Source: Candidatus Binatia bacterium (lineage in GTDB: Bacteria > Desulfobacterota > Binatia > Bin18). Taken from it: a DNA stretch of 64,000 bases. Both the position numbers and the translations under genes were made by a program. Positions 19,522-32,041 of the stretch are shown one piece after another (position 1 is the first letter of the stretch; each line of letters begins with the position of its first letter). The notes under the pieces are model-generated. The model ran no database searches. It worked only from the letters and a program-made list of their open reading frames with translations, and was not told the DNA's origin. The stretch spans positions 2,074,947 to 2,138,946 of the forward strand of contig OZ246888.1 of the NCBI GenBank assembly GCA_965231775.1. The letters are read 5' to 3'.

Positions 19522-19865
19522 CAGACAAAACGGATCACTCACACAATTCCGGTCAACTCGGCTTTGCGTTTTTTTCTACTGCCAGTGAGGCTGCAACTCC
19601 GCGTCAAGGAAACGGGAGCCGCGCTCAGGCATCGCTTGCCCCCCTGCTGCACCATTTCCAGACCACATTCCTTGAGACTCCTTTGGACGAGGTGGACCGG
19701 GAACTCGTGCCCTTACTTGATCTGTGTGAATCGGTACTGACGCGGGCCCTTGACGTTGCTCGGAAAAGAGGGGCTCAGGGCTGGTCCGAGGCTGAATACC
19801 GCAGCCTGCGCGGGATCGGTCAAGCGCAATGGTTGCTGATTGAGGCCCAGGCCAAGAAACGCTAA
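19518..19865 (+). CDS. Hypothetical protein.
   Basis: 115-aa ORF whose start overlaps the holA stop. No family recognised. Confidence 0.45.
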   Translation: MTDKTDHSHNSGQLGFAFFSTASEAATPRQGNGSRAQASLAPLLHHFQTTFLETPLDEVDRELVPLLDLCESVLTRALDVARKRGAQGWSEAEYRSLRGIGQAQWLLIEAQAKKR

Positions 19866-20398
19866 GGCTCCACCTGGAATTCCCGCCATAGGAAAGCTGA
19901 GTTCTCACAGTCATAACCTTCAAGAAGGTAGTAGTCCCCAGTTTGGCTTTGTTCAAACGCTTGAGATTCCTCCTGAAGCAAGTTAAATATCGCTTCTACT
20001 TCCGCTCCATTGGACGCCTGAAAAATCATTAAGCGAACACATGAGCGAGCCACGAGCAATTTCTCGAAATCGTCCAGGATGTCACCTCGATCACCCCATT
20101 CCGATTCGACGACAAGGCAAATACGATTCAATTGCCGTTGCGGCTCCCCATTCCATACCATCCAAACCAGATCGAAAAGCCATTCTCCAAAGTCAGGGCC
20201 GTCTGCGCATCCTTCTGTTGCCCTTCTTCTGTCGAGCGACGTGGCCACACGATAATCGAGATTGTGGCCTGCATGACAGAGCCCAGTCTTGATAGCTCTC
20301 GTCCACTCTGTATCGGATGCCCCTTGACCTCTCAGACAATCATTAACCTCGGTCAACACTTGATGGACTCTCTGGCTTATCTCATCTCTGTTACACAT
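19862..20398 (-). CDS. Hypothetical protein (178 aa).
   Basis: Non-repetitive ORF. AAGGA lies about 10 nt upstream of the ATG at 20396-20398. It is preceded by a structured leader carrying an intrinsic terminator. Confidence 0.55.
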   Translation of the reverse strand: MCNRDEISQRVHQVLTEVNDCLRGQGASDTEWTRAIKTGLCHAGHNLDYRVATSLDRRRATEGCADGPDFGEWLFDLVWMVWNGEPQRQLNRICLVVESEWGDRGDILDDFEKLLVARSCVRLMIFQASNGAEVEAIFNLLQEESQAFEQSQTGDYYLLEGYDCENSAFLWREFQVEP

Positions 20399-20421
20399 TT
20401 TTTACGATCCTTTTTATTACT

Positions 20422-20456
20422 GAATCCCAGAAAAAACCCCGACAGTGCTACGTCCG
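20422..20456 (-). terminator. Rho-independent terminator-like hairpin plus U-tract on the minus strand, about 25 nt upstream of the minus-strand gene start at 20398.
   Basis: Minus strand reads CCCCGCGGACGTAGCACTGTCGGGG followed by TTTTTT. Its position fits an attenuator or riboswitch expression platform, or the 3' end of an ncRNA. Confidence 0.5.
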
Positions 20457-20830
20457 CGGGGACGTCCCGTGGGTGATGAACACGGGCTGCCGGGGTTACG
20501 GTGGTGCCTGGTCCTCCCAAGCGACCACCCGATTTGGGATAGGTCGGCCTAAGAGGCCACCACCTCACTGATCACCGTCGTTGATAACTGCACTAGACCA
20601 CCTCCTTTCTCGGCGCACCCAGCGCGGGCCCAGAATCCGCTCTGCCAGGAACCGATCGCCGCTACCGGCCCGAGGCTCGGTCCGCTCTGTCCTACCGCAT
20701 TATAGGGACAGACACGAAACGGGCTGTGTCAGCCCGACCGAAAAACTGTTTTCAATCTACGCCCAAATGTCCCAAAGGTCCAGAGTCCACAGGGGTCTGT
20801 CCGGTCTGTCACTGCCCTTTTTCCGTTCTG
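20457..20830 (-). other. ORF-poor, highly structured region. It is a candidate 5' leader, riboswitch or ncRNA of unknown class.
   Basis: About 400 bp with no convincing protein ORF on either strand and multiple local hairpins. The minus strand carries a 14-codon mini-ORF with a strong SD (AAAGGAGGTG-5nt-GTG). The region ends in the terminator at 20422-20456. Confidence 0.25.
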
Positions 20831-20876
20831 ACGGCTCTTGCGGATATGCGCCGCGCTCTATACAGTCCTGTGGGAT

Positions 20877-21779
20877 ATGCCCAACTTTCACGCCTTAGCC
20901 GTTTTTGAAGCCTGTGGCTCTTCGACAGAAGAGATCCAAGAATCCGTTTCATCCCTCTTTGCGTCCTTCTCGCATCAACGTGTCCGTTACCATGAGCACG
21001 AACTGAGTGCCGGCCCCAGCGCTGAGTCAGCAGGGAAAAGCTTCTACTGCATGGTGTTTGTCGACTGCGATGTCGATGCATACACCGAAGAAAAGGCGCT
21101 GGACTTTGCGAATGATGCCTTTGAGTATATTTCGAAGGAGGCCTGCCAATATCTGGCCTTCGGACTCGTTCCCGGTCGTCAACGTGTGCAGCGCCGCCGG
21201 GAAGAATCGAGGGAGGCCGACGCAAACGAACGGGGCGGACGGCGGCGTGGAACGCCGGGCCGGGGTCGGAGGAGACGAGACGATCAGGAACGCGACAGAG
21301 GGGCGCGACAGGAAACGGATCAGACCCAGGTATCCCAAGGAGAAGTCCCGTCAACACCTGCTGCTGAGCCAGGCGAAACGCCTCCCGCCCCAGAGCGAGA
21401 GATACCGGCGGTAGAGCGAGAGATACCGGCGGTGGCAGTTGAGCCGGAAGAGGTTGAAGCGCCAACCGAGCTTGAGGTGGACGCTGAGGCCGGCGAGCCA
21501 CCCGCACCGCCGCCCCGCAGCTCTGCGGCAATGCTGGTGACCGTCACCGTCAAGCTCCGGGCTTCCGAGCTCAAAGACTCGCTGAATGGTGAGGCGCCGT
21601 CAGCGCAGCAAGACCTGATTCAGATGGCGATTGCCGAGGCGCGCAACCGACACCCGGAAGTACCCGCGGATGTTGCGCCCGAGTCAGAATCCACCCCGCT
21701 GCCCGGGGGCGACACGCTGCTGTCGCTGACCTGGAAATACCCGGCCCCGGTTCCTTCCTCGAAAGAATCTGCGTCGTAA
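20877..21779 (+). CDS. Hypothetical protein with an RG/E-rich disordered centre and a duplicated PEREIPAV segment.
   Basis: The track ORF starts at 20838; the Met at 20877 gives MPNFHALAVFEACGSS. The central region is low complexity. Confidence 0.5.
   Translation: MPNFHALAVFEACGSSTEEIQESVSSLFASFSHQRVRYHEHELSAGPSAESAGKSFYCMVFVDCDVDAYTEEKALDFANDAFEYISKEACQYLAFGLVPGRQRVQRRREESREADANERGGRRRGTPGRGRRRRDDQERDRGARQETDQTQVSQGEVPSTPAAEPGETPPAPEREIPAVEREIPAVAVEPEEVEAPTELEVDAEAGEPPAPPPRSSAAMLVTVTVKLRASELKDSLNGEAPSAQQDLIQMAIAEARNRHPEVPADVAPESESTPLPGGDTLLSLTWKYPAPVPSSKESAS
21392..21433 (+). repeat. Perfect tandem duplication of 2 x 21 nt (agagcgagagataccggcggt).
   Basis: Copies at 21392-21412 and 21413-21433. 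They encode EREIPAV-EREIPAV. Confidence 0.85.
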
Positions 21780-31654: not shown

Positions 31655-32006
31655 GGGGGCGATCTGGTTTCGACGTGGGCTAGAAAGCCAGGGCTGCATG
31701 CCGGGGTTCTGTCCCGCCCGTAAAACGGACAGGCTGCAATTTAACTGCAGACGATTTTGATTACGCTCTTGCTGCCTAGAGCAGCTTGCGTCTTACTGAC
31801 CCGCGCCCGTAGGGTTGGCTAAGGCGACACAAATCGGGATAGGGCTCGCATCGTGCCGAAGGGTGCGCGCCCGAAACTTTACTTTGGCTGGTCTGAGGGC
31901 ATCCTGCTCGTAGGAGGCCCGAGGATGAGATCAAACTACGAGCTACGCATTGTAGATGCCTTGAGTGGACTACTCTCGGACGCGGGTTCGATTCCCGCCG
32001 CCTCCA
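31655..32006 (+). ncRNA. ssrA: Transfer-messenger RNA (tmRNA). Tag reading frame about 31747-31779, giving tag peptide ADDFDYALAA.
   Basis: 5' GGGGGCGATCTGGTTTCGACGTGGG matches the tmRNA 5' acceptor/TLD, with an internal GGCTGCATGCCGGGG. The tag ORF gca gac gat ttt gat tac gct ctt gct gcc tag ends in the typical YALAA. The 3' end is TCGGACGCGGGTTCGATTCCCGCCGCCTCCA (T-arm plus acceptor); CCA is not encoded. Lies immediately downstream of smpB. A possible -10 (ATAATT) is at 31642-31647. Confidence 0.85.
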
Positions 32007-32041
32007 TTTTCTTTCTCCCTAAGAACCCGCAGGGGGTTCGT

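Follow-up and report, generated by a model that had tools for sequence, protein, structure and literature searches.

The window analysed here is a stretch of 64,000 nucleotides (nt) of contig OZ246888.1 from Candidatus Binatia bacterium (assembly GCA_965231775.1), and the element under study lies on its minus strand, between a minus-strand gene at 19862..20398 and a plus-strand gene at about 20877..21779, where only short or antisense open reading frames (ORFs) were found. A preliminary description of this region had claimed that 20400-20850 holds no credible long ORF, which the ORF listing bore out, and had offered three readings, a riboswitch, an attenuator expression platform or the 3' end of a small RNA (sRNA). 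Our analysis points very strongly to a gene for a structured small RNA that is distantly related to the sRNA Ms_IGR-5 (Rfam RF02471, Actinobacteria sRNA), and not to a riboswitch for the next gene. More specifically, we favour, with a probability of about 0.6, an independently transcribed, structured sRNA of about 320 nt, a divergent homologue of Ms_IGR-5 whose 14-codon micro-ORF is translated and which acts as a translation-gated switch. The features on which this reading draws are listed below, with SD standing for Shine-Dalgarno.

20754..20782, minus strand: predicted promoter, with -35 box TGGACC (20782..20777), a 17-nt spacer and -10 box TAGATT (20759..20754)
About 20428..20747, minus strand: small RNA gene of about 320 nt, boundaries predicted
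20611..20741, minus strand: clade-specific 5' domain, closed by a helix of 20741..20736 with 20682..20677
About 20735..20721, 20712..20686 and 20668..20652, minus strand: hairpins of the 5' domain, the first with the loop ACA, part of a conserved ACACAG
20596..20610, minus strand: SD1, AGAAAGGAGGUGGUC, 15 nt, containing the SD AAAGGAGGTG
20549..20593, minus strand: micro-ORF of 14 codons from GTG at 20593 to TAG at 20549, MQLSTTVISEVVAS and stop
20571..20576 with 20477..20472, minus strand: PK1, a candidate pseudoknot between the ORF-internal GGUGAU and the loop AUCACC of a terminator-domain hairpin
20558..20568, minus strand: SD2, GUGAGGUGGUG, the second SD-like element, located within the ORF
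20546..20558, minus strand: stop-codon hairpin, GGCCUCUUAGGCC
20507..20521, minus strand: third SD-like element, GGAGGA, in the loop of the hairpin CUUGG-GAGGA-CCAGG
20500..20506, minus strand: CACCACC, an anti-SD-like element directly 5' of the terminator domain
20431..20496, minus strand: terminator, a three-way junction with a 10-bp closing stem (20496..20487 with 20445..20436)
20486..20465, 20465..20450 and 20436..20431, minus strand: hairpin A, hairpin B and U6 tract of the terminator
19862..20398, minus strand: gene for a protein of 178 amino acids (aa), downstream context and not part of the RNA, with no match in Pfam, NCBIfam or PDB

The motif pair formed by SD1 and GUGAGGUGG occurs once in the whole window, where no copy is expected (100 shuffles), and the element stands far beyond chance because it recurs in 224 loci fetched from elsewhere. 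Genomes, one per species, were scanned for AAGGAGGTGGTC-N15-45-GTGAGGTGG, a pattern for which we estimate about eight chance matches, and at least 120 loci were found; a second scan, of metagenomes with a stricter pattern for the window's type, yielded 104 further loci, all of the window's clade, bringing the two scans together to at least 224 loci with relatives in at least five bacterial phyla. Among the genome matches listed, 77 belong to Actinomycetota, 36 to Acidobacteriota and two to Rokubacteria, with one each in Planctomycetota, Zixibacteria, a metagenome-assembled genome (MAG) of Heliobacteriaceae and one further MAG; a single Rhodobacteraceae locus has no ORF and is probably a chance match. 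Viral contigs held no copy of the motif pair. The relatives share a layout in which a long SD, an ORF of 11-20 codons, the second SD-like GUGAGGUGG and a stop exactly five codons after GAG are followed by a structured middle part and the terminator. In roughly half of the window's clade, the long-type metagenome loci (e.g. L121, L124, L128-L132), some 100 additional nt are inserted between the stop-codon hairpin and CACCAYC; this insert has a conserved GGUCAAC motif and no Rfam match.

At gathering thresholds, the Rfam scan of the whole window returned only a transfer-messenger RNA (tmRNA). At permissive thresholds, RF02471 was the sole standout and the only plausible match in 20300..20950, aligning 20429..20615 of the minus strand with the full length of the model (positions 1-184 of 184) at 24.1 bits (E 0.0019), and this alignment takes in the SD, the GUGAGGUGG motif, the UAG and the terminator. 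Riboswitch and leader families gave no match, either at gathering thresholds or with E up to 10. The same model was the top hit, again full-length and sub-threshold, at the equivalent place in six relatives of the window's clade (20-28 bits) and in one Terriglobia and one Bryobacterales locus, with scores of 18-28 bits overall. Matches above the gathering cut-off of 45 bits were obtained in Mycobacterium, Nocardioides and Micromonospora and, outside Actinobacteria, in two MAGs, one of Zixibacteria (55.9 bits) and one of Blastocatellia (52.3 bits); these last two bridge the gap between the window and Actinobacteria. The Rfam scores across Actinobacteria, Zixibacteria, Blastocatellia and the window's clade suggest that the window holds a divergent member of a family far broader than its name. 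The host is itself no actinobacterium, and its closest named relatives among the matches listed are two Rokubacteria MAGs (L065 and L082) and a MAG named 'Desulfurellaceae bacterium'. The preliminary description had named the lack of both an Rfam hit and conservation in relatives as speaking against its reading; the outcome was the opposite, a sub-threshold match together with conserved relatives.

Structure was assessed on two alignments, A1 with 40 short-type members of the window's clade and A2 with 65 Actinobacteria. On A1, RNAalifold proposed 69 pairs, 30 of them with compensatory change. A clade model comprising the helices of the 5' domain, the stop-codon hairpin, the helix GGUGGUG:CACCACC, the pseudoknot GGUGAU:AUCACC and the three-way-junction terminator left 95.0% of alignment cells paired as against 89.0% in shuffles, a value that none of 500 shuffles reached; 32 of its 67 pairs showed compensatory change where 17.7 were expected, and slid controls were 31-51% paired. 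The corresponding actinobacterial model reached 94.0% paired on A2, with compensatory change in 17 of 27 pairs. The helices are thus supported by compensatory change in relatives.

Two of these pairings would tie the ORF to the 3' part of the RNA. The 3' half of SD2, GGUGGUG, is complementary to CACCACC (20506..20500), a pairing that would link the 3' half of the ORF to the pre-terminator element. The equivalent actinobacterial helix, GGUGGCUGN with NCAGYCACC, is 95.7% paired in A2, with 5 of 10 pairs compensatory; in M. smegmatis IGR-5, whose gene lies between MSMEG_5794 and MSMEG_5795, it reads GGUGGCUG with CAGYCACC, and single-lineage variants come with a matching partner (CUAC/GUAG, CUCG/CGAG, CUUC/GAAG, GUCAU/GUGAC and GCCAU/GUGGU). 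A local hairpin after the stop codon, considered for Actinobacteria in place of this long-range helix, was weaker, at 81.8% versus 95.7% paired. A generic test of 8-mer complementarity was uninformative for the long-range helix because G-rich queries that tolerate G-U pairs match too many sites, and it was replaced by position-specific tables and column counts. The core of PK1 is 99.5% paired in A1, with a flanking pair that is UA in 13, GC in 9 and other in 14. Its putative actinobacterial analogue joins UGGAC, in the middle of the ORF, to a conserved terminator-domain loop GUCCA, and two of three GGAU variants carry AUCC, although these two may represent one evolutionary event since both are from Nocardioides; PK1 is accordingly a candidate with moderate support.

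The stop-codon hairpin is GGCC/GGCC in some relatives and GACC/GGUC in others, and its pair 242/252 is AU 30 times and GC 9 times. Pairing of the hairpin CUUGG-GAGGA-CCAGG is complete (100%) across the 40 relatives, and such changes as occur are one-sided. The ORF-pairing element borders on the terminator stem without overlapping it. In the terminator, compensatory change affects 4 of the 10 pairs of the closing stem and 4 of the 5 in hairpin A, and the same fold appears in the minimum-free-energy structure of the single sequence (-145.8 kcal/mol, z -2.1). C-rich, anti-SD-like elements pair with SD-like ones within the RNA, namely AUCACC, CACCACC, the CCUC of the stop hairpin and, in Terriglobia, GACCACCUC.

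The RNA appears to have a transcription unit of its own. Across the 40 aligned relatives, conservation begins at the promoter and stops at the U-tract, and in the window's clade about 155 nt upstream of the SD are conserved. The window promoter aligns with the clade's conserved TGGACa-17/18-TAGGAT, which places a putative transcription start near A20747, and this promoter-like motif, together with the predicted terminator, would fit a stand-alone transcript. A discrete transcript of 179 nt has been recorded for the M. smegmatis member (PMC10454040 supplement), and an actinobacterial member has been described as NAD-capped, with +1A, and as 'validated but yet uncharacterized' (bioRxiv 10.1101/2021.12.14.472595). 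In Actinobacteria and Acidobacteria the 5' domain is absent and the -10 box directly precedes ACAC-GGA-AAGGAGG, a position that, in Actinobacteria, agrees with the reported +1A and with the 179-nt transcript of M. smegmatis IGR-5. A simple scan for promoters and terminators missed both real signals, the terminator because it is a three-way junction. The scanner's own 'terminator' at 20736..20720 was rejected, being the conserved 5' hairpin of the RNA, as was TATAAT at 20704..20699 as a promoter, since in the alignment it falls on the loop of a hairpin with a covarying stem.

Within the 5' domain, compensatory changes were found in helices 1, 3, 4 and 5. A further pseudoknot, PK0, is formed by the hairpin loop CGGCG (20661..20657) with CGCCG (20615..20611), directly 5' of the SD, and its two strands co-vary among three states, CGCCGA/UCGGCG at 76 loci, GGUCGA/UCGACC at four and GGCCGA/UCGGCC at one. 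By analogy, a 5' domain that docks beside the SD resembles a translational platform.

The mini-ORF of the minus strand stands behind AAAGGAGGUG. The 3' tail of bacterial 16S ribosomal RNA is usually GAUCACCUCCUUUCU, and with this usual tail, which is not the organism's own, SD1 can form 15 contiguous potential pairs, one of them G-U. A 14-codon mini-ORF with a near-perfect SD had been noticed in the preliminary description; the SD in question, AAAGGAGGTG, lies at 20607..20598, its GGAGG is separated from the GTG by 7 nt, the SD1 motif stands in upper case in the Rfam consensus of RF02471, and the ORF proves to be kept across phyla. Among 203 unique loci, an in-frame ATG, GTG or TTG follows GGAGG at 4-14 nt in 201, and the stop comes exactly five codons after the GAG of GUGAGGUGG in 202. 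Of 225 loci, 4 pass in one of the other two frames and 0 in the remaining one. The ORFs, 11-20 codons long, differ by whole codons (match lengths 48/51/54 in the clade and 57/60/63/66 in Terriglobia), and a 1-nt deletion in one locus (L189) falls in the spacer between SD and start, leaving the frame intact. The Rfam seed consensus, which is independent of our search pattern, also has an open frame, of 12 codons and ending in UAG. Ribosome footprints have been reported on the homologues of M. abscessus and M. smegmatis (PMC4974804). On these grounds, the micro-ORF is probably translated in this organism.

The same evidence bears on the possibility of a purely non-coding sRNA, in which SD-like and start-like elements would serve structure or protein binding and the ORF would never be translated. 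Conservation is indeed higher at the nucleotide than at the amino-acid level, base pairing is predicted for most of the ORF, and Rfam lists the family as an sRNA gene. However, such an RNA would hardly keep start, frame and stop in 99% of loci over 11-20 codons when the other frames do so in 0-2%, nor would its indels respect codons or its mycobacterial homologues carry ribosome footprints, and we consider this alternative improbable.

The stop codon is UAG in 180 of the 203 unique loci, UAA in 12 and UGA in 11. In G+C-rich genomes UGA is usually the commonest stop. The preference for UAG goes together with a stop codon that is paired in its hairpin, often in a palindromic context (GCUAGC, CCUAGG), and may reflect either a link to release factor 1 or a structural constraint. 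A ribosome with the stop codon in its A site has in its P site a codon 8 nt downstream of the GAGG of SD2 (20566..20563). In Terriglobia (e.g. L008, L029, L096 and L114) the micro-ORF has 17-20 codons and is rich in Ser and Cys (MTSSDCSGRS..RPGEVAET), a richness that corresponds to repeated GUAGU-like motifs at the RNA level, and a 9-nt stretch complementary to the SD, GACCACCUC, is present in the 3' domain.

The genomic context of the RNA varies. Neighbours differ between phyla, the downstream gene is often convergent, and the 178-aa gene is not next to the RNA in other lineages, all of which suggests a family of stand-alone genes. In Actinobacteria, the RNA lies in a syntenic block with genes for a YgfZ-like (folate-binding) and a PabC-like (class IV aminotransferase) protein, followed after the RNA by a convergent FABP-like gene, DUF1416 and a rhodanese, identities that were read by eye from the sequences; we take this block to be the Rv0811c-Rv0815c region of M. 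tuberculosis. Guilt by association was tried and set aside, many apparent neighbour clusters being spurious ORFs rich in Arg, Ala, Gly and Pro, and the real neighbours represent vertical synteny within each phylum, with no shared partner.

Close relatives of the window (L195 and L225-L229) keep a fixed order of SGL, CoA-transferase, hypothetical protein, RNA, 178-aa gene, 115-aa gene, holA and CCG-domain protein. In them the RNA is nearly identical and the 178-aa protein is 54-79% identical, and some differences in the 5' hairpin, as read from the sequences, keep its pairing. The 178-aa protein has 30 homologues, and an exact look-up found it not on record. Its gene has a G+C content of 46-52%, as against about 58-60% in the surroundings, and its ...VVESEW...DDFEKL... 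resembles, by eye, a PD-(D/E)XK nuclease motif, a candidate assignment. Between the terminator and this gene, a motif ATCGTA(A/C)AAT is kept (window 20399..20430, minus strand, and L225-L228); it stands 27-47 nt before the ATG in L225 and L227, abuts the ATG in the window, and could be the gene's own -10 box.

This arrangement invites the alternative that the RNA is a cis-acting leader, a riboswitch or ribosome-mediated attenuator that would control the 178-aa gene through the terminator at 20431-20496. The U-tract lies 32 nt from the ATG with no canonical promoter found between them, relatives keep the order of RNA and gene although protein identity is no more than 54-79%, attenuators classically consist of a short ORF with a terminator behind it, and the docking of the 5' domain next to the SD recalls a riboswitch. 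Against such a leader, matches to riboswitch and leader families are absent; Actinobacteria, Acidobacteria and most members of the clade have an unrelated and often convergent gene next to the RNA, so that a conserved gene directly downstream on the same strand, open to regulation, is found only in the window's close relatives; and conservation of the RNA far exceeds that of the 178-aa protein. In addition, no amino acid is encoded by a run of codons in the ORF, a reading of the sequence by eye brought up no other partner for the 5' strand of the terminator stem, and the actinobacterial member is a discrete sRNA of 179 nt. A cis-acting leader is therefore, in our view, quite improbable, and read-through of the terminator into the 178-aa gene is possible in this lineage. 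Of the claims in the preliminary description, a GC-rich hairpin with U6 about 25 nt before the gene holds in part: an intrinsic terminator with a U6 tract is present on the minus strand, in the form of a three-way junction and not of a simple hairpin, and the U6 tract ends 32 nt before the ATG at 20398. Its sRNA option agrees with the conserved promoter and terminator, the covarying structure and the full-length, sub-threshold match to RF02471, whereas its riboswitch or attenuator option finds no riboswitch family and a downstream gene that differs between lineages and is often on the opposite strand. As a whole, that first interpretation was partly supported.

The peptide itself evolves freely. 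It is conserved only as (R/C/S/G)-E-V-(A/V)-x-x, which coincides with an invariant RNA motif, and the variable codons show no third-position excess (entropy by codon position 0.74/1.13/0.52, 1.16/0.90/0.82 and 1.28/0.91/0.97). Synonymous to nonsynonymous differences numbered 167:1751, 54:405 and 2030:3763, and purifying selection on the peptide sequence was not detected. Since the frame is kept, the variable codons lack a third-position excess and nonsynonymous differences dominate, the selected trait appears to be a readable frame, not a peptide. That the locus is a small-protein gene, with the 14-aa peptide (..SEVVAS) as functional product and the rest as untranslated region, is very improbable: its conserved ORF and the C-terminal signature common to phyla would suit it, but the E-V residues coincide with the invariant GAGGUGG, a strand of a covarying helix, the remaining peptide is free to change, and more than 250 nt of covarying structure surround an ORF of 45 nt.

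For the translation-gated sRNA that we favour, the following mechanism may be envisaged. In the folded RNA, the ORF would be bound into the 3' domain by GGUGGUG with CACCACC and by GGUGAU with AUCACC, and in the window's clade the 5' domain would additionally dock by its pseudoknot next to the SD. A ribosome loading onto the SD and passing through the ORF would have to melt the long-range pairings, so that translation and the closed fold would be mutually exclusive and the RNA would toggle between a closed form and one opened by the ribosome, which makes it a putative translation-gated switch. The event under selection would be the passage of the ribosome, not the peptide. That this passage gates a conformational switch by melting the pairings of the ORF with the 3' domain is a tentative proposal, which we would rate somewhat below even. 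As for the output, unmasked C-rich, anti-SD-like elements might act on other messenger RNAs, as in 6C-type sRNAs, or translation might govern turnover of the RNA. A bolder and rather doubtful extension is a 'ribosome-gated sRNA', a cross-phylum RNA of housekeeping grade that works by being translated and would form a new functional class. The 15-nt SD would capture a 30S subunit, passage through the micro-ORF, with its meaningless peptide, would open the pseudoknotted fold, and the RNA would report free translation capacity or release its anti-SD-like elements; the 5' domain of the window's clade would then be a gained upstream sensor, giving riboswitch-like control of the micro-ORF.

Several observations weigh against the favoured reading. 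The score of 24.1 bits lies below the 45-bit cut-off, so that the window's RNA fails membership of RF02471 at the gathering threshold. The helix GGUGGUG:CACCACC is invariant in the window's clade and draws its support by analogy with Actinobacteria, RNAalifold prefers another register, CGGUG:CACCG, together with a local GAGGU:ACCUC hairpin, and the covariation of PK1 is modest. The invariance of SD1 and GUGAGGUGG is built in, since the recruitment patterns fix both motifs, and the taxon list, drawn from the matches listed, is motif-biased as well. Finally, the 178-aa gene always follows the RNA in close relatives, after a gap that in the window is 32 nt.

Other features of the window and its relatives were also noted. 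A canonical tmRNA (RF00023, 176 bits) lies at 31655..32009 on the plus strand, with the tag peptide ADDFDYALAA and stop as given by ARAGORN. The plus-strand neighbour at 20877..21779 encodes 300 aa, with a long low-complexity stretch rich in Arg, Glu and Asp and a direct repeat in which EREIPAV occurs twice (about 21390..21435); the order of this gene is conserved in L195 and L225-L229. Searches of the Pfam, NCBIfam and PDB sequences with the three flanking proteins gave no match. Near one Terriglobia copy of the RNA, a selenocysteine tRNA is present (L024, 416..506, minus strand; RF01852, 78.5 bits).

Ms_IGR-5 has long been in Rfam as "Actinobacteria sRNA", and what is new here is an architecture found well outside Actinobacteria, whose non-actinobacterial members are unannotated because they score below the Rfam cut-off. 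New, too, is the core of the family, a reading frame behind an extreme ribosome-binding site that is tied by covarying helices to a terminator domain while its peptide is free, and the 5' domain of one large clade that docks next to the SD. In the literature searched, whose coverage was incomplete, no functional study of Ms_IGR-5/RF02471 was found, the RNA being described there only as an expressed, validated and uncharacterised sRNA. The same searches returned no functional study under the sRNA names at the Rv0812/Rv0813c locus of M. tuberculosis and no description of the ORF, the long-range helix or the non-actinobacterial members, and with this coverage a prior description is possible. Such strong conservation makes a basic, ribosome-linked role of the RNA likely, and mycobacteria and Streptomyces, which are genetically tractable and express the homologue, offer systems in which the hypothesis is directly testable.

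Among known systems, Ms_IGR-5, first found in Mycobacterium smegmatis, is the nearest. The element order is confirmed as shared, from a long 5' SD, AAGGAGGUGGUC, through a short ORF, GUGAGGUGG, stop, variable hairpin(s) and a C-rich pre-terminator element to the terminator, the Rfam model aligns over its full length, and the window's RNA, like Ms_IGR-5, is probably a stand-alone gene. The window's RNA differs in its additional 5' domain, about 140 nt long and with a pseudoknot next to the SD, in a pre-terminator CACCACC in place of CAGYCACC and in the pseudoknot partners GGUGAU/AUCACC in place of GGAC/GUCC, and both the long-range helix and the ORF are missing from the consensus structure in Rfam. 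Riboswitches are defined by a known aptamer upstream of functionally related genes, whereas no such aptamer was recognised here and downstream genes are unrelated or convergent. With leader-peptide attenuators (trpL, pheL and pyrL) the RNA has in common a short ORF (20593..20549), probably translated, upstream of an intrinsic terminator (20496..20431), a downstream pairing that translation would remodel and a peptide of no importance; it differs from them in having no conserved downstream gene, no antiterminator recognised by eye and no diagnostic codon run, and its actinobacterial member is a stable, discrete RNA. Dual-function sRNAs (SgrS/SgrT, RNAIII/delta-haemolysin and SR1/SR1P) are likewise stand-alone, structured sRNAs with a short ORF, but their peptide is conserved and active, whereas that of the window's RNA is not under purifying selection. 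The 6C RNA and other C-rich-loop sRNAs of Gram-positive bacteria share conserved C-rich, anti-SD-like strands or loops (AUCACC, CACCACC and ACCUCC-like), although no Rfam relationship links them to the window's RNA, whose own C-rich elements pair with its own SD-like sequences and whose action in trans is conjecture. tmRNA, finally, differs in its tRNA-like domain and conserved tag, neither of which the window's RNA has, and in that the latter brings its own SD and start, yet both are structured RNAs conserved at a housekeeping level, with pseudoknots arranged around a short ORF that is read, or in the window's RNA would be read, by the ribosome.

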